A DNA stretch of 64,000 nucleotides. It comes from Mollicutes bacterium. Lineage in GTDB: Bacteria > Bacillota_I > Bacilli_A > RF39 > UBA660. The notes under the pieces are model-generated. The model was not told the DNA's origin. It made no database searches and saw only the letters and a program-made list of their open reading frames with translations. Position numbers and translations under genes: made by a program. Where the stretch lies: the NCBI GenBank assembly GCA_012799635.1, contig JAAZKW010000034.1, forward strand, positions 9,930 to 73,929. Direction: 5' to 3'. Positions 586 through 20,828 of this stretch are shown here, in pieces (the first letter of the stretch is position 1; every line of letters begins with the position of its first letter).

Positions 586-1887
586 TTAGTCATTTTTATT
601 TTTAAACTGTAATATTATAGGAGTTCCTTCTAAATCAACAGCTTTTCTTATCTCGTTTTCTAAATATCTTTTATAAGAAAAATGAACTAATCTTTTATTA
701 TTAACTTCAAATGTAATCTTCGGAGGCCTATATCCGGTTTGATGTACAAAATATATTTTTAATCTCTTACCTTTATATGATGGTGGATTATGCATTACTA
801 CAGCCTGGGTAATAATATCATTTAAAACAGATGTAGCTATTTGTTTACGATGATTTGTTACTGCTTTAATAATATTTGGCATTAATTCACCAATTCTCTT
901 TCTATTTTTTGCCGATACATAAACAGTATTTACATAAGATATAAATTTAAACTCTTCTTTAATAAGAAGATTCCATTCTTTTATCATTTCATTGGGTTTT
1001 TTTACTGTATCCCATTTATTCACTGCAATAACTAAAGCTTTTCCTGCTTCTAAAGCAAAAGAAGCAATATGTTTATCATGTTCTATTATTCCTTCTTCAG
1101 CATTAATAACAAGTACCACTACATCACTTCGATCAATTGCTTTTAGACTTCTAAGCAAACTATATTTTTCAATATTTTCATATATTTTACCTTTTTTACG
1201 AATACCCGCAGTATCAATAACAACATATTCCTCATTATTATATTTAAACTTAGTATCAACAGCATCTCTTGTTGTTCCCGCTTTATCTGATACAATTAAT
1301 CTATTGTCATTAATTAAAGTATTAATTAAACTACTTTTTCCTACATTCGGTCTACCAACAACACAAAACTTAATAATGGGATCCTCGATCACTGGAGTTT
1401 CCCTCATATCTTTTATGATTTCATTTAATAATTTATCAAAACCAATATTATGTTCCGCTGAAACTCCAATTACATTTTCAAACCCTAATTCATAATAATT
1501 ATATATGTTATTTGCTCTTTCTTTATTATCAAGTTTATTTACAACTACAATAACTTTTTTATTTGCTTTATGAAGCATTTCTCTAACATTTTTATCTTCA
1601 ATATCTATCTCAGCAGTTCCATCGACTACAAAAAGAATAATATCGGCCTCATCTATGGCAATATTAGCTTGAATTAAAACTTCATTATCAAACTCATTGT
1701 TATCGCTTGTTATACCTCCGGTGTCAATTAGATGAAAACTAATATCATTATATGTAACAATTCCATATATCCGATCTCTTGTTACTCCAGGAGTATCTAA
1801 TATTATTGCTTTTCTTTCTTTAATAAGACGATTAAAAATAGTACTCTTACCTACATTAGGTTTTCCTATTAAACAAACCGTTTTCAT
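586..1887 (-). CDS. der: Ribosome-biogenesis GTPase Der (EngA): two tandem G domains plus a KH-like C-terminus
   Basis: Two P-loops are present, GKPNVGKSTIFNRL and GRPNVGKSSLINTL. Domain order and size (433 aa) are typical of Der. Confidence 0.9.
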   Translation of the reverse strand: MKTVCLIGKPNVGKSTIFNRLIKERKAIILDTPGVTRDRIYGIVTYNDISFHLIDTGGITSDNNEFDNEVLIQANIAIDEADIILFVVDGTAEIDIEDKNVREMLHKANKKVIVVVNKLDNKERANNIYNYYELGFENVIGVSAEHNIGFDKLLNEIIKDMRETPVIEDPIIKFCVVGRPNVGKSSLINTLINDNRLIVSDKAGTTRDAVDTKFKYNNEEYVVIDTAGIRKKGKIYENIEKYSLLRSLKAIDRSDVVVLVINAEEGIIEHDKHIASFALEAGKALVIAVNKWDTVKKPNEMIKEWNLLIKEEFKFISYVNTVYVSAKNRKRIGELMPNIIKAVTNHRKQIATSVLNDIITQAVVMHNPPSYKGKRLKIYFVHQTGYRPPKITFEVNNKRLVHFSYKRYLENEIRKAVDLEGTPIILQFKNKND

Positions 1888-1953
1888 AATATTATCTCCT
1901 TTCTTTTATGAGCAAACCTCCTTATTTGCTTTAAGTATTACAATACTAAAATA

Positions 1954-2388
1954 TTATATTAGAAATTGAGGACAGATCGACTCATTTGCTCTAAGCACTT
2001 TTATAACTTCTTCTCCCAATAAAGAATTATCCTCGTAAACGCAAGTATAAACTCTTCGATTCACAAAATATAATGCGACTTCTAAATCTCGTAAACTATT
2101 ACCATTTACTTCATTATAAATTTCACCATCTGCTAAATCCGTTTCAATATAACCTTCATCAATAAGTTCTCCAATAGTTTTAATTGTCAGGCCACTTTTT
2201 ACTATTTCCATATTATCTTGTCCCCACTTGGAAACACCACCTAAAGCAAGACTTACTTTATCTGCAGTTGCTTTTACGTCAATATTTCTTTTAACAGCAG
2301 TTATTCCTACACCTCCTATTGTTGCCACAACACCTAGTATTACAATAACTGCTAGTAATTCTACTAACGTTAATCCTTTATTATTCAT
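1954..2388 (-). CDS. Type IV pilin / ComGC-like prepilin (N-terminal cleavage/methylation motif)
   Basis: N-terminus MNNKG|LTLVELLAVIVILGVVATIG shows the class III signal motif G|(F/L)TLxELL followed by a hydrophobic helix. The protein is 144 aa. Confidence 0.7.
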   Translation of the reverse strand: MNNKGLTLVELLAVIVILGVVATIGGVGITAVKRNIDVKATADKVSLALGGVSKWGQDNMEIVKSGLTIKTIGELIDEGYIETDLADGEIYNEVNGNSLRDLEVALYFVNRRVYTCVYEDNSLLGEEVIKVLRANESICPQFLI

Positions 2389-2396
2389 ACTTCCTC

Positions 2397-2978
2397 CTAT
2401 AAATATTTTGATATTATTTCAAGCACTTCTTCTCGACCTTTTTTAGTCATACTAGAAAAAGGAATAAATTTATGATCATCATTTAATTTAAAAGTCTCAT
2501 TAAAATATTTATCTTGCTTTACTCTACCATTTTTAGTTATCTTATCATATTTAGTAGCAATAATATCAACATTTAAATTATAATATTTTAAATAATTATA
2601 CATTAATAAATCATCTTCTGAAGGTTTATGTCTATAATCTACAAGTAAAAAAACATGTTTTAAATTTTCTCTTGATTTAATATAATCTTCAATCATCATT
2701 CCAAATTTTCTTTGAGTATCCTTATTAACTGCAGCATATCCATAACCGGGAACATCAACTAAATAAAAAGCATTATTAATAAGATAAAAATTAAGCGTTT
2801 GAGTTCTGCCTGGTTTTGATGAAATACGAGCAAAGTTTTTCCTTTCAATAAGAGTATTAATAAAACTACTTTTACCAACATTACTTTTACCGACCAAAAG
2901 AAATTCTGCTTTGTCACCAGACGGATATTGACTAACTCTAACGGCAATTTTCGGTTCTTCTACTGAAGTAATTTTCAT
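2397..2978 (-). CDS. engB: Ribosome biogenesis GTP-binding protein EngB/YsxC
   Basis: GKSNVGKSSFINTL P-loop, ~190 aa, YsxC-like throughout. Confidence 0.88.
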   Translation of the reverse strand: MKITSVEEPKIAVRVSQYPSGDKAEFLLVGKSNVGKSSFINTLIERKNFARISSKPGRTQTLNFYLINNAFYLVDVPGYGYAAVNKDTQRKFGMMIEDYIKSRENLKHVFLLVDYRHKPSEDDLLMYNYLKYYNLNVDIIATKYDKITKNGRVKQDKYFNETFKLNDDHKFIPFSSMTKKGREEVLEIISKYL

Positions 2979-3036
2979 AACATATCACCTAATCAATATT
3001 ATATATTAAAAAACTTGCATTTTCAATTCTTTAAAA

Positions 3037-3996
3037 TTAAGCTAAATCTTCATTATTATCTAAATTAATTTTTTTATAATCTTTACCATCTAACTTAATA
3101 TCTAAAATATTATCTTGTAAAGTATATTCTAAGATTCCACCAGCTTCATCATAAAATGTTTTAATAACGCTTTTTAATTCTTGATTATATATATTTATTG
3201 TTTGATTTGAAAGAACAATTACATAATTTTTATATATATTACAATTATCAATAATATCTTCTGGGAACAGATCTTCTTTATTAAAATTAAATATTTTATA
3301 TTCCCCAACAGTAGATTTAGTAATAATCACTTTTGAATTATATTCATATATTGGTTCATTAAAGATTTGAGTTTGCTTGTTATTTAAAGTATCAATTAAA
3401 TAATAACCTGTTTCATCTTTAACAAGTACATATTCAGCTTCATTATCTAAATAACCAATATAATTATATCTAGTACTAATAGAAAAAAGATAAGTTTCTG
3501 TATTAAAAAGTCCAAAATAACCTTCTTTATTTTCAACAATTAAATATTTCTTATTTAATTTTCCACCATAATTAACAATACTTTTTACTTGTGAAATCAA
3601 TATATTATTCTTAATATTTTGAAAATAAATGTCTTCACCATCCTGAATAAAAGCATATGTATCATAGATATAAGTTTCATAATTATCTCCCACACTTATA
3701 TTCAAAGGTTCCTCTTCGATTAAAGAAGTTTTAGCTAAATGACAAGGATCATTTTTACAATCATATGTTCCTTGCAAATTCTTTCCATCATAAAAATATA
3801 ATTTATTTCCTATTCGAGGTAATCTTTTAGGATTTTCTCCTAAAAAGATTTTTTTATTGGCATTAAAAAAACCATAACCAGCAAGAGGAACAATTAGGAT
3901 AATTAGGATAAGCAAAAAAGGTAAAAATAGTCGATTATTTTTTATTTTATTCACCTGCTCCTCCATCTTCTTTCTTAATAATAATTGAATTAGCAT
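3037..3996 (-). CDS. Single-pass membrane protein with a repeated Cys-pair extracellular module (paralogous to the next gene)
   Basis: N-terminal TM helix LFLPFLLILIILIVPLAGYGFF. Module KLYFYDGKNLQGTYDCKNDPCHLAK...YAFIQDGEDIYF parallels modules in the 708-aa neighbour. Confidence 0.5.
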   Translation of the reverse strand: MLIQLLLRKKMEEQVNKIKNNRLFLPFLLILIILIVPLAGYGFFNANKKIFLGENPKRLPRIGNKLYFYDGKNLQGTYDCKNDPCHLAKTSLIEEEPLNISVGDNYETYIYDTYAFIQDGEDIYFQNIKNNILISQVKSIVNYGGKLNKKYLIVENKEGYFGLFNTETYLFSISTRYNYIGYLDNEAEYVLVKDETGYYLIDTLNNKQTQIFNEPIYEYNSKVIITKSTVGEYKIFNFNKEDLFPEDIIDNCNIYKNYVIVLSNQTINIYNQELKSVIKTFYDEAGGILEYTLQDNILDIKLDGKDYKKINLDNNEDLA

Positions 3997-6073
3997 CTAT
4001 TATATATGTATAAATAGTCTCTTGACCACCAACATCTATTATTGTAATTTTTTTATTTTCGACATCTACTTTATATTCTTTATAATTTAAAGGTAAATCA
4101 ATACCTAAAGAAGGATAAGCAGTAGTATTGTTGTATTTATACAAGTATAATTTATTATTTTCTATTCCTAAATAAAAATCATTATATAATTTTAGAGAAC
4201 TAAATTTCTTATTAGGATCTGATGTAATTTTACCTTTATCAATATCATATAATAAATATTCTTTGTTTTTTGCATCATAAACTATTAAATATTTTCCATT
4301 CTTACTTATAATATCAAACTGACTTTGTACTACTTCAATTCCTTCCAAAGTATACAAATAATTATAAGTAGTTCTTTTAACAAGATAATAATCATTATCA
4401 AATCTACTTATTGATTTGGTACCATCTAATTTATTATTAATAGTTTCACCAAAATTAATTATTTTCTTAGGGCCATTTTCTTTTATTGTAATCATGCCAT
4501 AATTATTACTCATATTTTGGGCTGTAATATTCTTATCTGTGTTTTGAATATGAGTTATATTAGAACTTCCATAACCTGTATCAACGGCTTGATATTTAAT
4601 TAACACTTCTGTTTTTACAAAATCATACAGACTAATATTTATCAAACTACTTCCTGTCTGACAATCATATATTAAGGCATATCTATTAGAAATAATTGGA
4701 GCATAACCACTGTTGTTTTGATTTAATATACTTGATTCTTTAGCAATAAAACAATTAGTATATTCACTATTTGCATCAAAGATTTTATTTTTATTAGTAC
4801 AAGTATATTTCCCAAGTAGTTCAGTTTTTTCTAAGTCTTTATAAAAATATAAAATACCATCTGAATAATTAACATAATTATATTTTTTATTAACTAATGC
4901 TTCATAAACATTTATTTCTTTTGTATTTTTATCAGATAACTTAACTTTAAGAACCCCGTTTTCAAAGGAAAATTCATATGCCTTTAAAGTTTCAACAACC
5001 TCCCCTTTTTCATTAATTCTATTTAAAGGATTATAATACATACTATTTAATAAAATCCCTCTTTCATTAAGCTTAACTAAATTATTATCATATACTGTTA
5101 GTTTTCCTTCAGTAATAGTTATAACAAAATCGGTATAAAAATCAATATAATCAAAGGTAAGCTTTAACATATCATTTCCAGAGTAATCGTATAAATTATA
5201 TTTATTGTTGTATAATGAAATATACTTATCAGTAAATTTTCTTATTTCACCATCGGTTTTAGAACTTAATTCAACCCCTTCCTGATTAACTAAAAAGGAT
5301 GTCTCCCCTTCTTTTACAACAAAAACTTCATCATTATCAGAAATGCCTAAATAAGAATAATTAAATGGTAAAACAATTTTCATAGTTGATGTAGATATAT
5401 CTATTATTCCATATTTATCTTCAATATCTTTGGCAATTACATATTTTAAAGGATTTTTACTTAATTTAATAAGATTATATTTACCTAGAATTTTATTACT
5501 TTTTAAATCATATAAATTAATTACGTCACCATCTTGAATAAATACAAACATATTATTATAAATTTCAGAACTTAATTCTATTTCTTTATTATCTAAATCA
5601 ACTACCTTTGGAGCATCAAAAGTATCCTCGCTAGTAAATTTAGCAAGATAACATTTTTTTGCTTTTTTTACATTACATTCATATCTACCTATTTCATTAT
5701 TAGGGCCATCATAAAATATTAGTTTACCATTAACATATGAATAATTACTTGTTTTAACTATTACATCAAGTTTTTTAATTTTATTTTTTCTAATTACAAA
5801 GAAATATAATAATAGTCCTATTATAATTAAAGTTATTAAAGAAATACTAATCCAAAAAATAATTTTTCCTTTTTTAGAAAGTTTTTTATAAAAACAATCT
5901 TTTTTTACTTTCTCTTTATTTTTCTTATTTTTCTTTCCTTTTTTATTTGTATCATTACCAATAACAAGTTCATTTGTACTTTCTTTAATTTTTGCTATAT
6001 CTTCATCAAATAAAGTGTCTTCAATATCATTATTTAATTCTACAATAACGTTCTTATCTTCTTCATTATCCAT
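3947..6073 (-). CDS. Large single-pass membrane protein (708 aa) with a Lys-rich cytoplasmic N-terminus and an internally repeated extracellular module
   Basis: TM helix IIFWISISLITLIIIGLLLYFFVI. It carries repeated units: GKLIFYDGPNNEIGRYECNVKKAKKCYLAK...FVFIQDGDVINLY, and again ILYFYKDLEKTELLGKYTCTNKNK...NCFIAK...ALIYDCQTG. Confidence 0.5.
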   Translation of the reverse strand: MDNEEDKNVIVELNNDIEDTLFDEDIAKIKESTNELVIGNDTNKKGKKNKKNKEKVKKDCFYKKLSKKGKIIFWISISLITLIIIGLLLYFFVIRKNKIKKLDVIVKTSNYSYVNGKLIFYDGPNNEIGRYECNVKKAKKCYLAKFTSEDTFDAPKVVDLDNKEIELSSEIYNNMFVFIQDGDVINLYDLKSNKILGKYNLIKLSKNPLKYVIAKDIEDKYGIIDISTSTMKIVLPFNYSYLGISDNDEVFVVKEGETSFLVNQEGVELSSKTDGEIRKFTDKYISLYNNKYNLYDYSGNDMLKLTFDYIDFYTDFVITITEGKLTVYDNNLVKLNERGILLNSMYYNPLNRINEKGEVVETLKAYEFSFENGVLKVKLSDKNTKEINVYEALVNKKYNYVNYSDGILYFYKDLEKTELLGKYTCTNKNKIFDANSEYTNCFIAKESSILNQNNSGYAPIISNRYALIYDCQTGSSLINISLYDFVKTEVLIKYQAVDTGYGSSNITHIQNTDKNITAQNMSNNYGMITIKENGPKKIINFGETINNKLDGTKSISRFDNDYYLVKRTTYNYLYTLEGIEVVQSQFDIISKNGKYLIVYDAKNKEYLLYDIDKGKITSDPNKKFSSLKLYNDFYLGIENNKLYLYKYNNTTAYPSLGIDLPLNYKEYKVDVENKKITIIDVGGQETIYTYIIDANSIIIKKEDGGAGE

Positions 6074-6150
6074 AAGCTCACATCCCTATTTTTCTATTTA
6101 CAATTATAACACATAACATATTAAAATAAAACATATCTTAATACTTGATG

Positions 6151-7155
6151 TTACTTCTTAAAAACCTTATTTTTACAAGTTTCTTCTTTAATTAAAAGAT
6201 AGTTTTCATTTAATTCATTCATTATCTTATTAATATTCTTAAATACCGTTTCATTTTTCCCTTCAGTAGTTAAAATGCTTATATAATAAGGGTTTTTTGT
6301 ATATACAATGCCATTAAGATGAAAATAACTATCTGCATAACCATACTTAGATGCTGCTTTAATATCATCATATGCAAGGTAATTAAGGATGCTATTTATA
6401 AAATGTTCTTGCAACTCCATAGCATTATGAGTATTTGTTTGAAAATATTCATCTAAACTTTTGATATATATCATTGAATCATTAACATTAGTTGAACCAA
6501 AAAAATCATTATTACTAATATTTAAATACTTAACGCCAAGAGAATTTAAATATGAAATAAAATTGTTTATCCCTATATGATTTAAAAGCATTATATAAGC
6601 AGAATTATCGCTATATCTAATAGAATATTTAAGCAAAGATCTTATTGGTATATAACTATTAAGTTGGTGCTTTTTTGTTCCTTTTGAATTCTCATATAGA
6701 TAATCACTTGTATATTTAATTCCTTCATCTAAATTAATTATTCCTTCATCTGCTTTTAAATAATAGTATAAAGCAAGTGGCATCTTTCTAAGACTAGCAG
6801 CATAATATATTTTATCCTCATTATATTTAAATGAATAATTATTTTGAGGATTAAATAAATAAATGCTTGTTTTATATTTATTTAGATAATTTTTAATTTC
6901 TGCTTCTTTATTTAAAAGTTCTTCAGGTTTTTCTTCATCATTAAAAGGAAGATTAAGACATTCATTATACTGCTGCTCTTTAAGTTTTAATTTTTTCAAT
7001 AATTCATTTGCCACTTTATTTTCTTTAATTAATCGATTTGCGTTAATATTAATCTTAATATCATTAATAAATAAAAATAAGAATGTAAAAAAAACAATAC
7101 CAAGTATTATATATATATGTTTTCTAGTAAATGGTTTTAATTTAAACTTAATCAT
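6151..7155 (-). CDS. Membrane-anchored serine hydrolase of the beta-lactamase (class A-like) / penicillin-binding fold
   Basis: N-terminal TM anchor. SxxK motif in YYAASLRKMPLA and SDN motif in RYSDNSAYIMLL. No clear KTG box was found. Confidence 0.4.
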   Translation of the reverse strand: MIKFKLKPFTRKHIYIILGIVFFTFLFLFINDIKININANRLIKENKVANELLKKLKLKEQQYNECLNLPFNDEEKPEELLNKEAEIKNYLNKYKTSIYLFNPQNNYSFKYNEDKIYYAASLRKMPLALYYYLKADEGIINLDEGIKYTSDYLYENSKGTKKHQLNSYIPIRSLLKYSIRYSDNSAYIMLLNHIGINNFISYLNSLGVKYLNISNNDFFGSTNVNDSMIYIKSLDEYFQTNTHNAMELQEHFINSILNYLAYDDIKAASKYGYADSYFHLNGIVYTKNPYYISILTTEGKNETVFKNINKIMNELNENYLLIKEETCKNKVFKK

Positions 7156-7156
7156 T

Positions 7157-7861
7157 TTAAAAATTAATAAAATACCTAATTAATACTGGACCTAATATTA
7201 ATAATAAAATAAGGGGTATAAAAAAGATTACAGATATTATTGATATTTTAGTTGGAAGTCTATTTATTTGGGCTTTAATAGAAAGAATTCTTTTATCAGT
7301 AAGATATTCTATTTGATTATTTAATAAATCTACAATACTATTCCCATATTTATTTGACTCTATTATATTAAATAAAACATTATTAACTTCTTTTGATGGA
7401 ATTCTTTTTTTAGTATCATTTAATGCTTCAATTAAGCTTTTACCGTATTTCAATTCCTCTAAAGATATTTGTATTTCTCTAGAAATATTACTATCAATCG
7501 CTTTAGAAGTAATCTCAAAACATGTTTTTAAATTTTTTTCATGTTCAATTGTTAAAGCTAATACTTTAAAATAAAATACAGCTTCTTTCTCAAGCAATTT
7601 GCTTCGTTTTTTAATTTTTAAATCTAAAATTATATAATCGTATAAATAATAAACAATAAAACTAAATACCGGAGCCATTAGATATCCTTGGTGAGAAAAT
7701 AATAGTAATGTAAAAAAGGTTAACACTAAAAGAACTGTTTTTACATTTAAAAAAGTATTAATATTTATTTTATTATCTGATCCTAAAGCAATAATTTTTC
7801 TCTTAGTATTTTCTATTGTTGATTTGCGATAAACTTTATTTATTAAGATGCTTTTTTTCAT
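7157..7861 (-). CDS. tadC: Tad/type II secretion system F-family inner-membrane protein (TadC-like)
   Basis: Polytopic membrane protein immediately downstream of the TadB-like and CpaF genes; start overlaps the previous gene (ATGA). Confidence 0.55.
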   Translation of the reverse strand: MKKSILINKVYRKSTIENTKRKIIALGSDNKININTFLNVKTVLLVLTFFTLLLFSHQGYLMAPVFSFIVYYLYDYIILDLKIKKRSKLLEKEAVFYFKVLALTIEHEKNLKTCFEITSKAIDSNISREIQISLEELKYGKSLIEALNDTKKRIPSKEVNNVLFNIIESNKYGNSIVDLLNNQIEYLTDKRILSIKAQINRLPTKISIISVIFFIPLILLLILGPVLIRYFINF

Positions 7862-8868
7862 ACTTCATCCACCTTCATAACTCTTTTGATAATAAATATG
7901 TATAAGAAGTACTGAACTACTAGTATTGCATCTATTACATAACCTGCTTTAGTATATATAAGAGGTTTAAAAAATTCTGGATTTAACATAACAATTAGAA
8001 AAACTAATACAAAAGGAACAATTAATAAAACATAATATAAAAGTTTGCTTGTTGCCAAAAGAGCATTAAGTTCGTTTTTAATTTTTAAGCGGTCATAAAA
8101 ATTGTTTTCTATCATATTAAATACCGATACTATATTACCTCCGGTTTTATTTAGTAATGCTAAAGATGAGGTAATCAGTTTTGCTTCTTCCAGATTAATT
8201 CTTTTATAAAATCTTTCAAACGCTGCTTCTACAGAAATACCATATTTTAAATCTTGATAAATAATATTAAACTCTGATTTAATGGGATTTGGTAATTCAG
8301 TTTTAACTATTTCAATAGCACCTAAAATATTTTTACCACTTTTAAAAGCACTATTCATAATTACTACGGCTTCAAGTAATTGTTCCGAAGTTAAATTTTG
8401 TCTTCTGGTATAAATGAAAAGAACAAAAAAGTCTATTAAAAAGAATCCAACAATTGAAATAATTATAAAATTATAAAAGTTAAAACTAATAATACGAAAT
8501 ATAATTGAAATAAAATATAAAAAGTCAATAAATAACATAACAATAAATTTTAAAGATATATAATCCATAGGTTCTATTGTATGTGATTCATCAAAAGCTA
8601 AATATTTAATAAAATGATTAGCATATTTAGTAAGGAATCGTGATTTACCTAAAAATGACGATATTTTTTTAATAATTTTATTTATATTACTAATAAATAC
8701 ATCGGTATATGAAAGGCCCACAATTTCATCACCATCAATTAAAAATGGCCTAAATCTTTTTTCGATTGATACACTTAAATAAAAGCGATAAATTATAAAA
8801 ACTAGTATTACCACTATAACACCTAACATTAAAGCAAATAATAATTGATTATTAATAGAACTAGTCAT
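7858..8868 (-). CDS. tadB: Tad/type II secretion system F-family inner-membrane protein (TadB-like)
   Basis: 336-aa polytopic membrane protein in operon position directly after the CpaF ATPase. Confidence 0.55.
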   Translation of the reverse strand: MTSSINNQLLFALMLGVIVVILVFIIYRFYLSVSIEKRFRPFLIDGDEIVGLSYTDVFISNINKIIKKISSFLGKSRFLTKYANHFIKYLAFDESHTIEPMDYISLKFIVMLFIDFLYFISIIFRIISFNFYNFIIISIVGFFLIDFFVLFIYTRRQNLTSEQLLEAVVIMNSAFKSGKNILGAIEIVKTELPNPIKSEFNIIYQDLKYGISVEAAFERFYKRINLEEAKLITSSLALLNKTGGNIVSVFNMIENNFYDRLKIKNELNALLATSKLLYYVLLIVPFVLVFLIVMLNPEFFKPLIYTKAGYVIDAILVVQYFLYIFIIKRVMKVDEV

Positions 8869-8879
8869 TTTTATCCTTT

Positions 8880-10199
8880 CTATTTAAACATATTTTTTAT
8901 TTCATCATAACCATAGGAGCTCATTTTTTCTAAACATTTTGGCTTTATCTTGTGCTTTTTATATACCCCATCTATTTCTTTGCTTTTTGTAACACCTATT
9001 TGTTCAAAAGTAAAGATATCATTTAATCTTATTTCTTCATTTTCAAAACCATCAACTTCACAAATAGCACTTATCTTTCTTTTACCATCAGAATATCTAT
9101 TCATATTAATAACGATATTAATAGCACTATTAATATATTCTCTAATAGCTTTAACAGGAAGTTCCATTGCTCCCATTAAAACCATTGTTTCAAGTCTATG
9201 TAAGGCATCTTTACAACCATTAGCATGAAGAGTGGTAATACTTCCTTCATGCCCTGTATTCATCGCTTGAAGCATATCAAAAGCTTCTTTATTCCTAACT
9301 TCTCCTACTATTATACGATCAGGTCTCATACGAAGAGAGTTTCTTACTAAATCTCTAATTGTAATTTCACCACTTTTTTCATAATTAGTTGTCCTTGTTT
9401 CAAGACTTATTACATGAGGTTGCGTTAAACGAATTTCTGCAGCATCTTCAATAGTAATTATTCTTTCATCTTCATTTATAAAGGCACTTAAAACATTTAA
9501 TAATGTTGTTTTACCTGATCCTGTTCCACCACAAACAATTATATTTAATTTAGATTTAACTGCAGCTTCCAAAAATACTGCCATCTCTGTTGTTAAAGAA
9601 CCAACTCTTAATAATTCTTCAATATTATTCATTGATTTTTTAAATTTTCTTATTGTCATAACAGGACCTTTAGTAGATAACGGTGGAATTACGGCATTTA
9701 TTCTAGAACCATCTTTTAATCTTGAATCCACCATAGGACTTGAAGAATCAATTGTTCTTCCCATTGGCTCAACTAATCTTTGAATAGTTCTGATAATATG
9801 CTCATCATTAATAAATGATATACTATCATCTTTAATAAGATTTCCTTCAAGTTCTATGTATATTTCATGAGGTGAATTAACCATTATTTCTGTTATATTT
9901 TCGTCTTTTAAAAGTTCAGTTAAGGGACCATACCCTTTTATTTCATTATCAATCAAATTAAATAAATGATTTTTTTCAAGACTACTTAAATTATATTCAG
10001 CAATAGCTTTATCAATCTGAAAATTTATAAAATCTTCCACACTATCATCTGTAACATTATTATCAATAATATTTTCAACTATCTTCATTCGAAGACTATC
10101 AAGTAAATCTTTATCTTCAAAAACTTCATAATCATTTACTAAGCTAGTATTACTTTTTATTTGATCATATTTAAATGCTTCTCTTAAATTACTTTTCAT
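8880..10199 (-). CDS. cpaF: CpaF/TadA-type secretion ATPase (VirB11/PilT-like superfamily)
   Basis: Walker A CGGTGSGKTTLLN, Asp box IITIEDAAEI, RPDRIIVGEVR, and a His box. Size (439 aa) and N-terminal domain fit CpaF. Confidence 0.85.
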   Translation of the reverse strand: MKSNLREAFKYDQIKSNTSLVNDYEVFEDKDLLDSLRMKIVENIIDNNVTDDSVEDFINFQIDKAIAEYNLSSLEKNHLFNLIDNEIKGYGPLTELLKDENITEIMVNSPHEIYIELEGNLIKDDSISFINDEHIIRTIQRLVEPMGRTIDSSSPMVDSRLKDGSRINAVIPPLSTKGPVMTIRKFKKSMNNIEELLRVGSLTTEMAVFLEAAVKSKLNIIVCGGTGSGKTTLLNVLSAFINEDERIITIEDAAEIRLTQPHVISLETRTTNYEKSGEITIRDLVRNSLRMRPDRIIVGEVRNKEAFDMLQAMNTGHEGSITTLHANGCKDALHRLETMVLMGAMELPVKAIREYINSAINIVINMNRYSDGKRKISAICEVDGFENEEIRLNDIFTFEQIGVTKSKEIDGVYKKHKIKPKCLEKMSSYGYDEIKNMFK

Positions 10200-10956
10200 C
10201 TTTTACCCCCATTAAATCCACACAAATATTAGTAAATGCAAGAGATGCTCTGGGATAACTTTTAGCAAAATTTGATTCTAAAGTTAAAATCTTACCATCT
10301 ATTAAATAATTATCGTAATTTTTTATATAAAAGTTTGTTCCTAATGTGTAATCAATGTTACATTTCATAATATTTCTTAAATCAAACAAACTGAAATAAC
10401 TCTTATGAGGATATACTGAATTATTAAGTAATACTTTATACTTAGTTAAATTATTTTCTTCGAATATCTTTAACAAATTATACATATTTTTAATATTAAC
10501 TAAGTCATTACAACAAACTAATAATATTTGATCAACAATATCAAGAACAGTTATATTAAATTCATTTAAATTGTGATTAAGATCCACTAAAATATAATCA
10601 TATTCATAAAGAGCATTAGTAATTATATGCTCAATATGTTTTGACGATACCTTAACTCCTTGTCTTGGATCTGAAGGTGCGGCTAAAAAAGAAATATATT
10701 CATTATATTTTGTTGCATAATTATCTATTGCCTTAAATCTATTATTAGTATAATCATCAACAAAATTATATATTGATTTTTTAAAAGACCTATTTAAAGA
10801 TGTTCCTACAGCACCACTTGTTAAATCAAAATCAATAATTAAAACTTTTTTATTCATACCAGCAAAAACACCAGCAACATTTAAAAGAACTGTCGTTTTA
10901 CCAACGCCTCCTTTAGTTGAAAATACACATAAACTTTTTCCTTTGCTTTTTCCCAT
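10189..10956 (-). CDS. CpaE/TadZ-like ParA/MinD-family ATPase (pilus assembly localisation ATPase)
   Basis: Deviant Walker A STKGGVGKTT, 255 aa, located immediately upstream of cpaF. Confidence 0.7.
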   Translation of the reverse strand: MGKSKGKSLCVFSTKGGVGKTTVLLNVAGVFAGMNKKVLIIDFDLTSGAVGTSLNRSFKKSIYNFVDDYTNNRFKAIDNYATKYNEYISFLAAPSDPRQGVKVSSKHIEHIITNALYEYDYILVDLNHNLNEFNITVLDIVDQILLVCCNDLVNIKNMYNLLKIFEENNLTKYKVLLNNSVYPHKSYFSLFDLRNIMKCNIDYTLGTNFYIKNYDNYLIDGKILTLESNFAKSYPRASLAFTNICVDLMGVKDEK

Positions 10957-10959
10957 ATT

Positions 10960-11325
10960 TTATCCCTTTTTAATCTTTATTACATTATCTTCTTTTGTAC
11001 CTATCAAAGAAGTTCTAATAATGTAATAATTCTTACCTATAACTTTACCAAGTAAACTATCTATTTTAATTTCTATTTTAATATGTAACCCTTCCTCAAA
11101 AGATATCTCTATTTTTTCATATTCAATATTATTATCATTATATAGTTTTATTATATCATCTTTATCATTTCTTTCAATAGAAGTTTTAATAATCGTTCTT
11201 GTAATGGAATTTAATTTAACTTTATTATATGTTATTAATGATGTATCAATAATAACAGCACATGCAAGTAATAATAAAGGAAGAATTATAATAAATAAAG
11301 CAAGTGTTTGACCTTTATTATTCAT
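10960..11325 (-). CDS. TadE-like pseudopilin
   Basis: MNNKGQTLALFIIILPLLLLACAVIIDTSL is a TadE/Flp-like N-terminus. Confidence 0.5.
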   Translation of the reverse strand: MNNKGQTLALFIIILPLLLLACAVIIDTSLITYNKVKLNSITRTIIKTSIERNDKDDIIKLYNDNNIEYEKIEISFEEGLHIKIEIKIDSLLGKVIGKNYYIIRTSLIGTKEDNVIKIKKG

Positions 11326-11626
11326 ATATTATCCTTTTAATAAGGACTTTATGTTCTTGTCCTAAAACAGGTGTTAAAAATGGTGAATAAATATCCACTT
11401 TGTTAGATAAAATATATATTTTATAATTTTCTTTGCTTTCAATTACAAATTCATATTCACTAGAAAGAGCATAGCTTTCATCGGAAATTAAATTTTCTAA
11501 TGTAAGTTCTAAATTGCTTTTATTTTGCATTATTCTTACGTAATCTAAAGTAGCAATTAATAGCATTATAAAAACGGGTACAACGATAATAAATTCGACT
11601 AAAGCCTGACCCTTTTTATTCATCAT
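11318..11626 (-). CDS. TadE-like pseudopilin
   Basis: MMNKKGQALVEFIIVVPVFIMLLIATLDYV shows the G/xxxVEF TadE signature. It is the first gene of the operon; a TTGCAT...TATAAT promoter and an RBS lie in 11627-11731. Confidence 0.6.
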   Translation of the reverse strand: MMNKKGQALVEFIIVVPVFIMLLIATLDYVRIMQNKSNLELTLENLISDESYALSSEYEFVIESKENYKIYILSNKVDIYSPFLTPVLGQEHKVLIKRIIYE

Positions 11627-11731
11627 ATCACCTACTATATTATATTATAGTTAATTTTATCTAAAAATTCAATTATATTTCATTGATTAAAGAACAAAAA
11701 TGCAATATAATTATTTAAAGGAAGGTATTAG

Positions 11732-12370
11732 ATGAACAAAAAAATTATTTTATTGCTATTTATTATAAATTTATTATTATTATCGGCTTGTACTAGTACA
11801 AGTGGTGTTGATAAAATAACTATGCCAAAAGAAAACCCTATTGTAACAATGGAATTTGAAAAATATGGAACAATAACAATTGAACTATATCCAGAAAAAG
11901 CCTTTAATACTGTTGCTAATTTTGTAAACTTAATCGAAGATAAGTTTTATGATGATAATACTGTTCATAGAGTTCAAAAAGGATTTGTAATTCAGGGAGG
12001 AGATCCAACAGGCAAAGGAAATGGGGGACCGGGTTACTCTATTAAGGGAGAATTTAGTGAAAATGGTCATGATAATGATCTAAAGCATACTAAAGGAGTT
12101 ATATCCATGGCAAGAACAAATGATCCTGATTCTGCTGGAAGTCAGTTCTTTATTGTAACAAATGATGATGCAAAATATTCTCTTGATAATAAATACGCTG
12201 GATTTGGTAAAGTAATCGAAGGAATGGATGTTATAGAAAAAATAGAAAAAGAGAAATTTAAATATACTAATGAACAAATGGGAATGTTAAAATCACCATT
12301 TAAAATAATTAAAGCTACTGTAGATACTAAAGGATATGAATATAAGGTAAGAAAAATAGAACAAAATTAA
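11732..12370 (+). CDS. Cyclophilin-type peptidyl-prolyl cis-trans isomerase, lipoprotein
   Basis: Lipobox LLLSAC. Cyclophilin core HRVQKGFVIQGGDPTGKGNGGPGYSIKGEF...QFFIVT. Confidence 0.9.
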   Translation: MNKKIILLLFIINLLLLSACTSTSGVDKITMPKENPIVTMEFEKYGTITIELYPEKAFNTVANFVNLIEDKFYDDNTVHRVQKGFVIQGGDPTGKGNGGPGYSIKGEFSENGHDNDLKHTKGVISMARTNDPDSAGSQFFIVTNDDAKYSLDNKYAGFGKVIEGMDVIEKIEKEKFKYTNEQMGMLKSPFKIIKATVDTKGYEYKVRKIEQN

Positions 12371-12383
12371 TTGTTCTATTTTT
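12357..12383 (+). terminator. Rho-independent terminator of the cyclophilin gene (the stop codon lies in the loop)
   Basis: Hairpin TAGAACAA-AATTAA-TTGTTCTA followed by TTTTT. Confidence 0.6.
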
Positions 12384-12418
12384 ATAACCTCCAAACAAAT
12401 TTTAATATATATGGAGTT

Positions 12419-13909
12419 TTACATGCTCATGGTTTTTTCTGGTTCAATTACCTTTTCTTGTTCCAAAGTTATTTGCAAAGCATCATAAACGCTAATTTTT
12501 ATTAAATAATCTATATAATTATATGGATAAATCCCAGATATACTATCTGCAGGAATTTGATAATCGTCCGTATATTGTTTTTGCATTTCTTTTGTTAAAC
12601 AATCATTTGTAGGTTCTGAATTTATTTTACTTAAAATTTCTTCCACTTGCAACTCTATATCACTTGGAAGAATAATCCCAATTTTATTTAATTCTTCTCT
12701 TATTTGTCTAATAATTAAATCAATACCATAATCAGTAGATGTAGAAGGCGAAAAATAAACCGGCCGAACAATATCTAAATATTCTTTTCTAGTAAAATAA
12801 GTTTTAGTTTCATGAGTTTTTTTAATAAATTCAATAAAACAATTTATATCATCAAAATATTTTTCTCTTGCAGCATCTATAGTATTAAAATGTGGTTCTA
12901 TTGGAAGATTAGGCATGATTTTTTTTAACATTTCATAGTATTTAGCATCATTCCCTGAAAGCCATTCCCACGAAGTAGCTTGTTCAACATGTTTCCCAAG
13001 CAAACCTACTAAAGCATTGGCATATCCTGAAACTTTTTGTCCTTCATAAGCAACAACTATTATATTAGGATTTTGTTTTTTAACACTCTTTATATCTTCT
13101 TTAGGACAAAGAAAAATAGCTTCTGGAGGTAATTGAATTCCACCTTCAAAATAAGTATCAACAACTACACCAGATTTTAAATTTTCAAGTGGCATTTTAT
13201 CAAATGGAATCACAACTGCATACCTACAATTGTCCCAATTACCTAGTCCATGATTTCCTACCTCTGAATTAACTGAAAAATGAAGTGTGTTCCTATTTCT
13301 TGTAAACTTATATTCGCCAACTTTATTCATTCCAAAGAAACCTTTATGAATTAATCCGGTTTCTTTCAGAGTTCTAATTCTTCCACCAGATGGAATATAT
13401 CTTGTTTTATGAACTAAAACAAAATCTTCTAAACCATTATACCTTTCGGGGTTATTTTGGGTTGTTTTATCTTTTTCACTTAAAGTGATGGTTATACCAT
13501 TTGCATCAGCTAAAGATATTAATTCTGAAAAACTCAAATTAAAATCTGCTAATTTTTCTTTTTCTTGATATAACCGAGTTATTTTTTTAATTATTTCATT
13601 TCTATCTTTAAATAAAGATATACATCTAGATAATAATAATTTCTTTTCCTCTAATAACTCAATATGCTCTTTTAATTTTTTAATTCCTTTAGGATTAAAT
13701 AATCTTTTTAAAAAACTCCTTTGATTTATTTTAGCTTCATTTAAAAGTTGTTCATGCTCATTATAAACTGCCTGTATTTCTTCCAACATTGTGTTACAAT
13801 CTAAGCTCAACTTTTCTAACAATTCTTGTATTTGCTTATTATAACTTATTAATTCCTCATTTTCTTTTAGTTCTTTTTGACAAAGAATTTCTCTTAATTG
13901 TTCAATCAT
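12419..13909 (-). CDS. Hypothetical cytoplasmic protein (496 aa), coiled-coil N-terminus, no recognisable family
   Basis: Long uninterrupted ORF downstream of ileS on the same strand. No signal peptide or TM segment. Confidence 0.4.
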   Translation of the reverse strand: MIEQLREILCQKELKENEELISYNKQIQELLEKLSLDCNTMLEEIQAVYNEHEQLLNEAKINQRSFLKRLFNPKGIKKLKEHIELLEEKKLLLSRCISLFKDRNEIIKKITRLYQEKEKLADFNLSFSELISLADANGITITLSEKDKTTQNNPERYNGLEDFVLVHKTRYIPSGGRIRTLKETGLIHKGFFGMNKVGEYKFTRNRNTLHFSVNSEVGNHGLGNWDNCRYAVVIPFDKMPLENLKSGVVVDTYFEGGIQLPPEAIFLCPKEDIKSVKKQNPNIIVVAYEGQKVSGYANALVGLLGKHVEQATSWEWLSGNDAKYYEMLKKIMPNLPIEPHFNTIDAAREKYFDDINCFIEFIKKTHETKTYFTRKEYLDIVRPVYFSPSTSTDYGIDLIIRQIREELNKIGIILPSDIELQVEEILSKINSEPTNDCLTKEMQKQYTDDYQIPADSISGIYPYNYIDYLIKISVYDALQITLEQEKVIEPEKTMSM

Positions 13910-13973
13910 ACTATCACCAGTTTTATTTTAACATACCAATAATATTTTAACAATCTGAGACCTTTTAATATTA

Positions 13974-16900
13974 TTAATTCTTTATTAGACTAATACCAAT
14001 ATTATAATCGTTTAAATTATAATCTAAACTTAATGTATCATCAAAAATAATATCTACTGCTAAAGTTTCATTTTTAATATAATCAGCATTATCAATAATA
14101 CTATCTTTAAATAAACCCTCCGTATTATATTTAATTATAATCCGATCTGCAATATCAAAATTGTTTTCTTTTCTTAGCATTTGTACTTTAGATACAAATT
14201 CTCGTGCATTACCTTCTTTGATTAAAGATTCATTTAAAGTAGTATTTAAAATAACAAAATCACCTAAAGATGTTCCAATATTAAAACCTTCTTTTGCAGT
14301 ATATCGAATATCTACCATATCTTTAGTAATATCATATAAAGTATTATCAATTTTCATTTGGATAACACTATCATTTTGAAGTTTTTCAATATCTGATGAT
14401 GATAATTCTAATAATTTTTTAGCATATTCATGAATGTTTTTACCAAAGATTTTACCCACTACTTTAAATTCTGGTTTAATTGTAAAGTCCATATACTTGT
14501 TTAAATCTTTTTCAAAAACAACTTCTTTAACATTTAATTCTTCTTTAATCAATGTTGTAAGACTAGATAATAATTTTTCATTCTTACCATCAATTAATAC
14601 TTCTGACAACGGTTGTCTTACTTTAATTTTATTTTCTTCTCTAACATATCTTCCAATACTAATTAAATTTCTTACTAAATCCATTTTATCTTCTAAATCT
14701 TTATTTATTAATGATTTATCATATTTAGGAAAAGGTGCTAAATGAACTGACTTATTCCCAGTTATTTTTTGATATATTTCTTCGGATACAAAAGGTACTA
14801 TTGGAGCAATCATTTTACATAACCCAGTTATTACTTCATATGTTGTTATATATACTGATTTCTTACTATTATTAAGTTCTGATCCCCAGAAACGATCTCT
14901 ATTTCTCCTGATATACCAATTAGATAAATCTTCAGATACAAAATTAGTAATAACTTTTACTACTTTATTTAAATCATATACATCATAACTTTCTGTTACA
15001 TATTTTAATAAACTATTATATTTAGATAATAACCATTTATCTATTTCTTCGCGCTCTTTTACATCAATATTACAATCATTGATATCAATATTATCTGTAG
15101 TTGCATACATCGAAAAGAAATTATAAGTATTTTTTAAAGGATTAAAGAACTTAGAATGGACTTCTTTTAAGCCTTCTTCATCAAACTTTAGTGGTATCCA
15201 AACTGGTGATGCATAAGGAATATACCATCTAATAGCATCTGCTCCATACTTTTCTAGTAAAGCAAATGGTTCAATAGAATTACCTTTTGATTTATGCATT
15301 TTTTGACCATGTTTATCAAGCAACAATTCATTTACTAAAACATTCTTATAAGGAGACTTGCCAGTTAAAAAGACTCCGATTACAAGTAGTGAATAAAACC
15401 AACCTCTTGTTTGATCAATACCTTCACAAATAAAATCAGCTGGATATTGTTCTTCCCATAGCTTTTTATTTTCAAAAGGATAATGATATTGTGCAAATGG
15501 CATAGATCCCGAATCAAACCAACAATCAATAACTTCAGGTGTTCTTTGCATCTTTTTACTACATTTAGGGCATTTGATAAAAACATTATCAACAAATGGC
15601 TTATGTAAATCAATATCCTTATCATTTAACTTTTCTATTGACCTTTCTTTCAGCTCTTTAATTGAACCTATCATTTCCATATGACCACAGTCACAGCGCC
15701 ATAAAGGAAGAGGGGTTCCCCAATATCTATTTCTTGATATTGCCCAATCGGTCATATTTAAAAGCCAGTTACCAAATCTTTTGGTTCCAACATATTCAGG
15801 GAACCAGTTTACTTTTTCATTTGCTTTTATAATTTCATCTTTAATCTTAGTAACTTCAAGATAATAAGATGGTCTTGCATAGTAAACTAAAGGACTATGA
15901 CATCTCCAACAATGAGGATATTCATGATCCATCTTCTGTTTTTTAAATAACTTATTATTTTCTTTTAAGTAATCTACTATTTTTAAATCAGCATCAAAAA
16001 TATTTTCTCCTTGCCAAGGTCCCTCATTAAATGTTCCATCTTCATTAACGGGATTTAATATAGCAAGATTATATCTTTTGCATACTTTATTATCATCCTC
16101 ACCAAACGCAGGAGCTATATGAACAATTCCCGTACCATCTTCAGTTGTTACAAAATCATCACACATAACTATAAAAGCTTTTTTTGATGGTTTTAATATC
16201 GGCATTAATTGCTCATATTCTGTATATTCTAAATCTTTACCTTTACATTTAGATAAAACTTTATATTCATCACCCAAAATCACAGGAGCTAATTTTTCTG
16301 ATAAAATAAATTTATTTCCTTTAGAAAGAGCTGTAATATATGTTTCATTTGGATTAACACAAAGGCCTACATTTGATATTAAAGTCCATGGTGTTGTAGT
16401 CCATACAAGAAAATATTCATCACTATCTTTCTTCTTAAAAGTAACATAAACAGTGTTTGCCGTTATATTTTCATATCCTTGAGCAACTTCATGAGAAGCA
16501 AGTCCTGTACCACATCTAGGGCACCAAGGAAGAATCTTTTGCCCTTCATAAAACATCTTTTCTTCAAAAAATCTTTTTAAAATATACCATACGGTTTCAA
16601 TATATGAATTATCATACGTAATGTAAGGGTTATCAAGATCAATGAATTGACCCATTTCTTTAGTTAATCGATTAAAAGCATCAACATTTTTCCAAACAGA
16701 TTCACGACATTTCTGATTAAATTTATCAATGCCATATTTTTCAATATCATCTTTCCCAGAAAAGCCTAATTCTTTTTCAACTTGTACTTCAACAGGAAGA
16801 CCATGAGTATCCCATCCTACTTTTCGAAGAACTTTTTTACCTTTCATAGTTTGATATTTACCAAAAGTATCTTTTAAAAACTTTGCTATCATATGATGAA

Positions 16901-17057
16901 GTCCTGGATTTCCATTGGCAGTTGCTGGTCCATCATAAAAAACAAAAGTTTCGTTTTCTTCCTTTATTGATTTTTCAAAAATTTTTTCTGTTTCAAAAAA
17001 GGTTCTAATATCTTTTTCTGTTTCATACACTTTTTTATCACTTAATTTTTTAAACAT
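13974..17057 (-). CDS. ileS: Isoleucyl-tRNA synthetase
   Basis: HIGH-like PATANGNPGLHH and KMSKS-like KMHKSKGN motifs, plus a Zn-finger Cys cluster. The true start is ATG MFKKLSD with a GGAGGG RBS. The ORF-track N-terminal extension (17058-17108) overlaps the T-box terminator. Confidence 0.93.
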   Translation of the reverse strand: MFKKLSDKKVYETEKDIRTFFETEKIFEKSIKEENETFVFYDGPATANGNPGLHHMIAKFLKDTFGKYQTMKGKKVLRKVGWDTHGLPVEVQVEKELGFSGKDDIEKYGIDKFNQKCRESVWKNVDAFNRLTKEMGQFIDLDNPYITYDNSYIETVWYILKRFFEEKMFYEGQKILPWCPRCGTGLASHEVAQGYENITANTVYVTFKKKDSDEYFLVWTTTPWTLISNVGLCVNPNETYITALSKGNKFILSEKLAPVILGDEYKVLSKCKGKDLEYTEYEQLMPILKPSKKAFIVMCDDFVTTEDGTGIVHIAPAFGEDDNKVCKRYNLAILNPVNEDGTFNEGPWQGENIFDADLKIVDYLKENNKLFKKQKMDHEYPHCWRCHSPLVYYARPSYYLEVTKIKDEIIKANEKVNWFPEYVGTKRFGNWLLNMTDWAISRNRYWGTPLPLWRCDCGHMEMIGSIKELKERSIEKLNDKDIDLHKPFVDNVFIKCPKCSKKMQRTPEVIDCWFDSGSMPFAQYHYPFENKKLWEEQYPADFICEGIDQTRGWFYSLLVIGVFLTGKSPYKNVLVNELLLDKHGQKMHKSKGNSIEPFALLEKYGADAIRWYIPYASPVWIPLKFDEEGLKEVHSKFFNPLKNTYNFFSMYATTDNIDINDCNIDVKEREEIDKWLLSKYNSLLKYVTESYDVYDLNKVVKVITNFVSEDLSNWYIRRNRDRFWGSELNNSKKSVYITTYEVITGLCKMIAPIVPFVSEEIYQKITGNKSVHLAPFPKYDKSLINKDLEDKMDLVRNLISIGRYVREENKIKVRQPLSEVLIDGKNEKLLSSLTTLIKEELNVKEVVFEKDLNKYMDFTIKPEFKVVGKIFGKNIHEYAKKLLELSSSDIEKLQNDSVIQMKIDNTLYDITKDMVDIRYTAKEGFNIGTSLGDFVILNTTLNESLIKEGNAREFVSKVQMLRKENNFDIADRIIIKYNTEGLFKDSIIDNADYIKNETLAVDIIFDDTLSLDYNLNDYNIGISLIKN

Positions 17058-17290
17058 ATTCCCTCCATAAAAAAAGGTAATACCAAAGGGCGAAAACCGC
17101 GGTACCACCTTTATTTTTTCTTAATAATTTAACGCTTCTTAGCGTCTTATCTTACTGTGTTTTCAGATAAGAAGTTTACAAGTGATCTAGATATATCATC
17201 ATTACTAATTTTCATCAACCATCAGCTTTCTTAAAACTTTAATATATCCCCTCTTGGTCATAACTTTTAAACAATACATTCATTTTAATA
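17058..17290 (-). promoter_or_regulatory. T-box riboswitch leader of ileS with its promoter
   Basis: Minus-strand sequence AAUAAAGGUGGUACCGCGG matches the conserved T-box. It is followed by a terminator hairpin, AAGGUGGUACC...GGUAUUACCUU plus a U-run, directly before the ileS RBS. Candidate specifier AUC-A lies in ...UAGAUCACU.... A promoter TTGCAG-N17-TAAAAT sits at about 17282-17310. Confidence 0.8.
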
Positions 17291-20208: not shown

Positions 20209-20730
20209 TTAATTATATTTTAAACAACAACCATCTTTATCACAATAACAGTCTACTAATCCCATTCTATGTTCACCACAATTTGTAGCAGCGCTTGTTC
20301 CTTCAGCTGCTTGATCAGATTTATAATTACTTACAAGGACATCATCAAATACATAAGTACCATCAGATATGGAGAAATAATAATTATATTTACCTGAATC
20401 ATATTCTACAAAAACTGAACCAGTATATTTATCCCCTGGATTATCATCTTCTGTCCACATTCCAGAACCTTTAGTAAAATAGCCATATTTATAAAGATAT
20501 TCCAAATCAAAACAAATATCACTATTCGAACTAAAAGAACCATTTAATTGTTCAAATTGATATGCATTTTTAGCTGCTTCCACTGCTGAAAGCCCTTCAA
20601 GTCCTAAAGATGATTTCTTAGCTCTTCCCACTAATGGTCCTATCGCTGTTACACCAATTAACATTACTACTGAAAGTATTGTTATTATTGCTAAAAGTTC
20701 TATTAAAGTAAATCCTTTATTATTTTTCAT
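20209..20730 (-). CDS. Type IV pilin-like protein (prepilin cleavage/methylation N-terminus) with a Cys-rich C-terminal tail
   Basis: MKNNKG|FTLIELLAIITILSVVMLIGV. C-terminus CGEHRMGLVDCYCDKDGCCLKYN has 6 Cys in 23 aa. Confidence 0.7.
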   Translation of the reverse strand: MKNNKGFTLIELLAIITILSVVMLIGVTAIGPLVGRAKKSSLGLEGLSAVEAAKNAYQFEQLNGSFSSNSDICFDLEYLYKYGYFTKGSGMWTEDDNPGDKYTGSVFVEYDSGKYNYYFSISDGTYVFDDVLVSNYKSDQAAEGTSAATNCGEHRMGLVDCYCDKDGCCLKYN

Positions 20731-20825: not shown

Positions 20826-20828
20826 TAT

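Follow-up and report, generated by a model that had tools for sequence, protein, structure and literature searches.

The window analysed here comprises 64,000 nucleotides (nt) of contig JAAZKW010000034.1 (NCBI GenBank assembly GCA_012799635.1) and carries on its minus strand a string of nine genes: a six-gene cassette for the assembly of a Tad (type IVc) pilus, a gene for a beta-lactamase-fold serine hydrolase, and a pair of genes for large membrane proteins, referred to below as p708 and p319 after their lengths in amino acids (aa). The source, a metagenome-assembled genome (MAG) labelled “Mollicutes bacterium”, is an uncultured low-GC bacterium of gut or digester, and the 708-aa product is deposited in NCBI as “hypothetical protein GX951_04045 [Mollicutes bacterium]”. 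An earlier note on this DNA had interpreted all nine genes as one extended Tad machine of an undescribed variant architecture, with the repeat proteins in the roles of TadG, RcpC and the secretin. The nine open reading frames (ORFs), their order and their motifs are all present as described there. In our reading, the region very probably consists of three independent head-to-tail units on the leading strand of the compact, 25% GC genome of a walled bacterium: the Tad genes form an ordinary six-gene cassette with unrelated neighbours, and the hydrolase and the two large membrane proteins are independent envelope genes that adjoin the cassette merely by position here.

This reading is based primarily on comparative surveys of the kind proposed in the earlier note, centred both on the pair and on the Tad genes. 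Relatives of the pair were found in the genomes of at least 169 species, all of them uncultured Bacilli labelled Tenericutes, “Mycoplasma sp. CAG” or Bacilli. A scan with one genome per species retained 80 pair loci, each with 10-kb flanks, which were searched by tblastn with every protein encoded at positions 586-17108 of the window. Tad genes lie within 10 kb of the pair in a single locus, denoted L011, from the Bacillota MAG SIG203; the other 79 lack them, and the hydrolase was found in none of the 80. Clustering of the neighbours around the pair in 83 loci revealed a different and recurrent context, in which the paralogue directly follows the p708 homologue (position +1) in at least 55 loci and valS, encoding valyl-tRNA synthetase, is found at positions +1 to +4 of the pair in 63, while the genes upstream differ from locus to locus (YceD/L32, HemW and others). 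Three distant members of the pair family that were checked singly are located among lepA/hemW/dut/valS, sigma-factor or SpoIVB-type genes. The reciprocal survey, a metagenome scan with CpaF, yielded about 20 related cassettes at 60-72% identity, all of which keep the TadE-TadE-TadZ-CpaF-TadB-TadC block and end at TadC; none contains the hydrolase, p708 or p319 within 10 kb, and TadC is mostly followed by a YebC-like regulator or some other housekeeping gene. Constant linkage of the downstream genes to the Tad module, raised as a question in the earlier note, is thus contradicted from each side: Tad genes accompany the pair in one of the 80 loci and the hydrolase in 0/4 independent contexts, and none of the roughly 20 cassettes has any of the three genes. 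In a reduced, strand-biased genome, genes packed tightly on one strand can mimic an extended operon, and the examination of neighbourhoods centred first on an accessory gene and then on a core gene provides a simple two-way test for such false operons.

A sporulation role of the pair was considered on account of SpoIIP, SpoIVB and Spo0A near some relatives and of the place upstream of valS, which in B. subtilis is occupied by spoVID and ysxE; there is no homology and no consistent linkage, and this candidate was rejected.

The transcription signals agree with the division between the cassette and the pair. At 25% GC, consensus scans are uninformative (78 promoter-like sites in the window against 94 expected from shuffles, and 2 terminator-like sites against 2.0 expected), and the conservation of intergenic regions was therefore used instead. 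The promoter that the earlier note placed at the head of the operon accordingly has a mixed outcome: a promoter-like site is present in the divergent intergenic region before TadE, and it counts for little, such sites being unenriched relative to shuffled sequence. The 77-nt region upstream of p708 is more informative. Its extended -10 element, TGTTATAAT at 6103-6111, lies about 30 nt upstream of the p708 start and is shared, together with a near-identical 5' untranslated region (UTR) and ribosome-binding site, with a second locus (L175) that encodes a 70%-identical p708 orthologue; in L175 the upstream gene is a different one and is followed by a hairpin and a T-run. In L011, the TadC stop codon is followed by a hairpin and U6 (folding free energy -12.4 kcal/mol, z -3.9, reached in 0/200 shuffles), and an analogous element, TGATATAAT, precedes the pair after this terminator. 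Because the element and the UTR are conserved in L175, and a terminator and TGATATAAT are found in L011, the pair is predicted to be a transcription unit of its own, with its own conserved promoter and 5' UTR.

The hydrolase is a third case. In agreement with the earlier note, it is a membrane-anchored enzyme of the penicilloyl-serine-transferase fold, with a Beta-lactamase2 match and the SxxK and SDN motifs. Invariant throughout its family are SxxK (S121, K124), SDN (182-184) and, as third motif, K-Y-G (270-272). At its N-terminus, a membrane anchor is followed by a linker of about 90 aa. It does not qualify as a class A beta-lactamase, given the K-Y-G instead of KTG as third motif and an NCBIfam bla_class_A score of 60 bits against a cut-off of 200, confined to the N-terminal half; the protein falls below every curated beta-lactamase cut-off. 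A profile search against solved structures retrieved 3cjm, annotated “putative beta-lactamase” (3e-23), and Tll2115 (6e-11), which we take to be PBP-A, the DD-peptidase of Urbach et al. 2008. The hydrolase shares SxxK, SDN and a K-x-G third motif with these class-A-fold penicillin-binding proteins (PBPs), and differs from them in its N-terminal anchor, its linker and K-Y-G rather than K-T/S-G. It plausibly acts on peptidoglycan. The nearest homologues outside the species (31-45% identity) are encoded beside a divergent FemAB gene, DUF308 and enolase, and in one case directly after FtsE-FtsX and a PcsB-like M23 peptidase; Tad genes are absent from all four independent contexts. These FemAB and FtsEX-PcsB neighbours point to wall metabolism, not resistance, as the province of the family. 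The label “Mollicutes” might suggest a wall-less organism, in which a peptidoglycan hydrolase would be meaningless; this was rejected, since a PASTA Ser/Thr kinase, a Mur ligase and a VanY-like carboxypeptidase, the last recognised by eye, are encoded in the window, and the organism is therefore walled.

Since the hydrolase gene starts 1 nt past the TadC stop, it is probably co-transcribed with the Tad cassette, in this genome or species only: the layout is seen exclusively in near-identical contigs of one species, and no relative has the hydrolase in its Tad cassette. This leads to a narrower proposal, namely that the PBP-fold peptidase alone was recruited, in this lineage only, as a Tad-linked wall remodeller that lets the pilus cross peptidoglycan, the propeller-like pair being unrelated. 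The single-nucleotide gap, which leaves no space for an intergenic promoter, the intact catalytic motifs, the anchor that puts the enzyme at the interface of membrane and wall, and the departure of the gene from its usual FemAB neighbourhood would all fit such partial co-option. We nevertheless regard it as unlikely, given the restriction of the arrangement to one species, the absence of the hydrolase from L011 and from the other related cassettes (about 20), and the often fortuitous gene order of reduced genomes; moreover, the enzymes that trans-envelope machines recruit are usually lytic transglycosylases or amidases and not of the DD-peptidase type.

The two proteins of the pair are paralogues that lack a significant match to any Pfam, NCBIfam or PDB sequence family, consistent with the failure of the earlier note to recognise their repeated unit as a named domain. 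Both are single-pass proteins, as proposed, the AlphaFold2 (AF2) models having one transmembrane helix each, at residues 67-94 of p708 and 10-30 of the 305-aa form of p319 that results when gene callers place the start at GTG 3954; the p319 start overlaps the end of p708. The recurring unit of about 60 aa from which the ectodomains were said to be built is real as a Cys-pair motif and is not a tandem repeat: it occurs only three times, each time as the opening of a module of about 280 aa, of which p708 has two and p319 one. This follows from the alignment of p319 to residues 114-389 of p708 (25% identity, BLASTP E 1e-11) and from the homology of the two halves of the p708 ectodomain, which represent an internal duplication (BLASTP 8e-7). 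The four cysteines of p708 are invariant in 20 diverse homologues. A profile search of 1.84 billion representative sequences identified at least 201 clusters at 50% identity below E 1e-30, and the best 150 matches all belong to the family itself, with no bridge to a named one; a search of PDB sequences with the p708 family profile returned only SNARE and transmembrane-tail noise at E 0.02 or weaker. For p319, a word-indexed search found two near-identical proteins only, and the distant homologues were recovered by tblastn and ORF clustering in the loci; its structure was predicted from an alignment to the first module of the p708 family.

The structure prediction recommended for the 708-aa protein gave an all-beta, propeller-like model; the models of both proteins are confident, and their ectodomains are built of repeated 4-strand units. 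The best Foldseek matches in the PDB are tandem WD40 propellers for p708 (E ~1e-11) and WD40/BamB propellers for p319 (beta'-COP, BamB and WDR5, E ~2e-7). The likeness to extracytoplasmic propeller scaffolds of the WD40-like and PQQ-like BamB types thus consists in the all-beta 4-strand units, with beta'-COP, BamB, Gemin5 and IFT80 at the top of the Foldseek results, and weak matches to WG_beta_rep occur in 4 of 20 family members (best E 0.024). Unlike known propellers, the modules of p708 and p319 open with a conserved Cys pair, and the proteins combine an N-terminal transmembrane anchor with the organization of a two-module and a one-module paralogue. Neither protein has a class III signal. 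Searches for the domains expected of Tad alignment components, RcpC/CpaB (SAF), TadG/VWA and secretin, were negative (Pfam at E<=1 for 20 family members; NCBIfam for p708 and p319), except for an isolated weak VWA_2 match in one of the 20 members. As a separate observation, the cytoplasmic tail of p708 (residues 1-66) contains an acidic motif with N8 and E12 (NxIxE...T..DE), followed by a Lys-rich segment in which K55, K57, K67 and K70 are invariant or nearly so; this points to a conserved partner in the cytoplasm or to a patch that binds lipids. The family of 700-aa/300-aa pairs is unannotated, is confined to uncultured reduced-genome Bacilli, and merits a Pfam entry.

Several observations weigh against the division into independent units. 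No canonical terminator is predicted between 11626 and 1954, so that read-through across the nine genes is conceivable. Tad genes are located immediately upstream of the pair in two lineages, the window and L011, whose p708 proteins are only 43% identical, and the adjacency of Tad and pair is therefore either old or recurrent. Finally, the assignment of the pair to propellers is tentative, the template-modelling scores of the Foldseek matches being only 0.15-0.34, with about 0.3 for p319, and no function can be derived from the fold. The first two points, together with the same-strand, tightly packed arrangement of all nine genes, the 1-nt TadC-hydrolase junction and the extracytoplasmic, membrane-anchored nature of both large proteins, are what favours a nine-gene machine, in which the wall would be opened by the hydrolase and the place of TadG, RcpC or the secretin would be taken by the repeat proteins as an envelope-spanning alignment complex. 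Such a machine is nevertheless very improbable. Nearly the whole window is encoded on the minus strand and the same-strand string runs on past p319 into engB, a pilin-like gene and der, so co-orientation is uninformative on function. The 79 pair loci without Tad genes and the related cassettes without any of the three genes argue in the same direction, as do the L011 locus, which has a terminator between TadC and the pair and no hydrolase, the FemAB/FtsEX context of the hydrolase family, and the lack of RcpC, TadG, VWA or secretin domains in p708 and p319. Because a promoter belonging to the downstream genes and a conserved context elsewhere were found, the two observations by which the earlier note had proposed to judge it, the idea of an extended machine fails, and with it the claim of an undescribed architecture.

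What remains of the Tad module, from 11626 to 7157, is an ordinary six-gene monoderm (type IVc) cassette. Profile hidden Markov models support TadE, CpaF, TadB and TadC as named in the earlier note, and hence a Tad/Cpa-type assembly cassette of a monoderm, while the second TadE-like protein is matched only weakly and below the cut-offs. The junctions from TadE to the hydrolase are tight: neighbouring genes overlap by 8, 11 and 4 nt or are separated by 3, 11 and 1 nt. The 102-aa TadE-like protein is the sole Tad-type pilin candidate of the window and opens the cassette in relatives too; the 121-aa pseudopilin, with the signal MNNKG/QTLALF and without Glu5, keeps its position in the approximately 20 related cassettes. 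CpaF is most similar among solved structures to Caulobacter CpaF (8e-103, compared with 1e-43 for FlaI/GspE), and its best NCBIfam match is the TadA-family model TIGR03819, at 322 bits and thus under the equivalog cut-off of 373. The 255-aa protein is named TadZ because of its position in the cassette; it consists of the ATPase domain alone, without an N-terminal receiver-like domain, and its nearest solved structures are MinD and FleN, not TadZ.

With the Cpa system of Caulobacter and the Tad system of Aggregatibacter, the cassette shares the CpaF/TadA motor, the TadB and TadC platform and a ParA-type ATPase in the TadZ position, and, with Tad/Flp systems at large, pseudopilins of the TadE type with G/xxxxEF class III signals. 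The absence of a secretin, RcpB/C and TadD is as expected for a monoderm. It differs from Tad/Flp systems in having no Flp and no TadV, either in this locus or in the 64-kb window, and no TadG, in the reduction of the TadZ-like protein to its ATPase domain, and in the very small size of both pseudopilins. Gram-positive tad operons are diverse in composition (PMC12786226); that of Bulleidia extructa comprises 13 genes and, unlike the cassette here, starts with tadV and two pilin genes (PMC12786226). Monoderm Tad systems arose repeatedly through loss of the secretin, and Tad is often horizontally transferred (Denise et al. 2019, PMC6668835).

The absence of Flp and TadV reported in the earlier note is borne out for the window. 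A six-frame motif scan found no Flp/Fap-type ORF (about 50-80 aa, G/xxxxEY) in any frame, and no A24 prepilin peptidase was seen among the window ORFs, 30 of which were scanned and the remainder read by eye. Class III signals are confined to three ORFs, those of the 102-aa TadE and of two GFTLxE-type pilins (1954-2388 and 20209-20730), the latter two being of type IVa style. Among 11 related cassettes inspected for Flp, five have a Flp gene directly upstream of TadE (ORFs of 63-85 aa with ...KGQALVEY..., Pfam Flp_Fap 1.5e-7 to 7e-4), and six lack it in an otherwise intact cassette (seven with that of the window), so that a missing adjacent Flp is not unusual. Prepilin peptidases are sometimes common to several type IV filament systems (Denise et al. 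2019, PMC6668835), and the peptidase here may be shared with the type IVa-style pilins of the window. That about half of the Tad cassettes of this clade have no adjacent Flp raises the question of what they polymerise.

Alternatively, the missing gene might mean that the cassette is what remains of a horizontally acquired island and, having lost the Flp major pilin gene, is now non-functional or in decay. It would account for the window without a Flp-type ORF and for the mere 105 nt upstream of TadE, the place where 5 of the 11 relatives retain Flp; however, none of the six ORFs is disrupted and their junctions overlap or are coupled, CpaF has intact Walker motifs and shares 72% identity with the L011 protein, and the full cassette also persists in the six relatives without an adjacent Flp, which argues that Flp is either encoded elsewhere or dispensable. 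Decay is thus very unlikely.

As a side observation, the Flp-type pilins of the related cassettes are extended at the C-terminus by a segment that has two conserved cysteines (e.g. ...TKTSCSLVDKEYKEGAKPGEAKC...); these pilins are encoded at L094 8254-8463, L095 8360-8572, L096 8312-8545, L107 4741-4998 and L109 8245-8436. Flp pilins are normally short and without cysteine, which makes a two-Cys extension unusual.

Taken as independent units, the genes would work as follows. If the cassette works like characterised Tad systems, pilins with class III signals would be polymerised by CpaF on the TadB/TadC platform after cleavage at G/Q by a prepilin peptidase that, like any Flp major pilin, would be encoded outside the window; alternatively, the TadE-like protein of about 100 aa might itself be the fibre subunit. 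The cassette would be mobile, and the PBP-fold peptidase, from a family otherwise linked to FemAB or FtsEX-PcsB, would have been displaced to its site 1 nt behind TadC. The pair would be paralogous bitopic proteins whose propeller-like modules, three in all, lie on the outer side of the membrane, and we infer that it most likely has a housekeeping role as a scaffold of the envelope or as a complex that binds a ligand, with no relation to pili. There is also a slim chance that in the sublineage of the window and SIG203 the Tad cassette was inserted directly upstream of the pair and retained during divergence, with secondary recruitment of the pair and, here, of the peptidase to anchor or guide, across the wall, a Flp-less filament made of the TadE-like pilin of about 100 aa; if true, the co-opted pair would represent a monoderm counterpart of the RcpC alignment complex. 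Neither the Flp-less cassettes nor the unannotated pair family, as leads, alter the current understanding of Tad pili.

Table 1. Positions of the Tad cassette, the adjoining envelope genes and associated signals in the window
Feature	Position	Strand	Evidence or remark
Promoter-like site TTGAAT-17-TATAAT, 10/12 positions	11644-11672	minus	105-nt divergent intergenic region before TadE
TadE-like prepilin, 102 aa, class III signal MMNKKG/QALVEF	11318-11626	minus	Pfam TadE PF07811 5e-9, 36.5 bits against a cut-off of 22.9
Second pseudopilin-like protein, 121 aa, TadE/TadG-like N-terminus	10960-11325	minus	TadE 2.6e-3 and Tad (PF13400) 4.6e-3, both below cut-off
ParA/MinD/FleN-type ATPase at the TadZ/CpaE position, 255 aa, KGGVGKT	10189-10956	minus	AAA_31 7e-15, ParA 3e-10, CbiA 7e-10
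CpaF/TadA secretion ATPase, 439 aa	8880-10199	minus	Pfam T2SSE 3e-63
TadB-type platform protein, 336 aa, one T2SSF domain	7858-8868	minus	PF00482 1.4e-12
TadC-type platform protein, 234 aa, one T2SSF domain; closes the conserved cassette	7157-7861	minus	PF00482 1.2e-11
Membrane-anchored class-A-beta-lactamase/PBP-fold serine peptidase, 334 aa	6151-7155	minus	Beta-lactamase2 PF13354 6e-26, above cut-off
77-nt intergenic region with AU-rich hairpin and extended -10	6074-6150	minus	Folding free energy -12.6, z -2.9
p708, single-pass membrane protein, 708 aa	3947-6073	minus	No Pfam/NCBIfam family; AF2 predicted local distance difference test (pLDDT) 81
First Cys-pair motif of p708, residues ~113-190 (C133, C141, FIQDG)	5504-5737	minus	Invariant columns in alignment
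Second Cys-pair motif of p708, residues ~403-484 (C425, C441)	4622-4867	minus	Invariant columns in alignment
p319, single-pass membrane paralogue of p708	3037-3996	minus	BLASTP to p708 1e-11; AF2 pLDDT 80
Cys-pair motif of p319, residues ~62-125	3622-3813	minus	Alignment/BLASTP to p708
Promoter-like site TTGAAA-17-TATAAT, 11/12 positions	2998-3026	minus	58-nt gap before engB

Further pilin-like genes were encountered in the window and in the loci of the pair survey. Two essential GTPase genes, engB (2397-2978) and der (586-1887), flank a 144-aa type IV pilin-like gene (N_methyl, MNNKG/LTLVELL), from which they are separated by 8 and 66 nt; the engB-pilin-der trio is kept in relatives with 62-74% identity in Der and EngB (L014 7452-9800, L103 663-3060 and L175 4450-6809). 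The 173-aa type IVa-style gene at 20209-20730 lies downstream of two paralogous secreted proteins of 418 and 419 aa without a Pfam match (20829-23357), themselves preceded by a 426-aa protein of Listeria-Bacteroides (Flg_new) repeats (23368-24648); neither a pilus ATPase nor a platform gene was seen near this 20209-24648 group. Giant proteins of 570-1077 aa that open with the prepilin signal KKGFTLVELL are encoded in L009 (13065-15338), L011 (13846-17079 and the next gene), L012, L020 and L074 (four copies). As these giant N_methyl proteins follow the pair in L009, L011, L012 and L020, a link between the pair and type IVa-style pilins was considered and rejected, pilin-like genes being no more than six genes away in only 10 of the 83 loci.

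Elsewhere in the window, a 496-aa protein without a Pfam match is encoded at 12419-13909, between a divergent peptidyl-prolyl isomerase gene and ileS, and is conserved in near-identical contigs only. Small to medium membrane or secreted proteins at 51661-52149 and 62268-63419, and also at L097 14410-15174, have similar hydrophobic N-terminal regions and Cys-containing segments; one of this set, of 383 aa, has a long C-terminal domain. A PduL-type phosphate propanoyltransferase (PTAC, 1.8e-52) is encoded at 47290-47844 amid housekeeping genes of this reduced genome.

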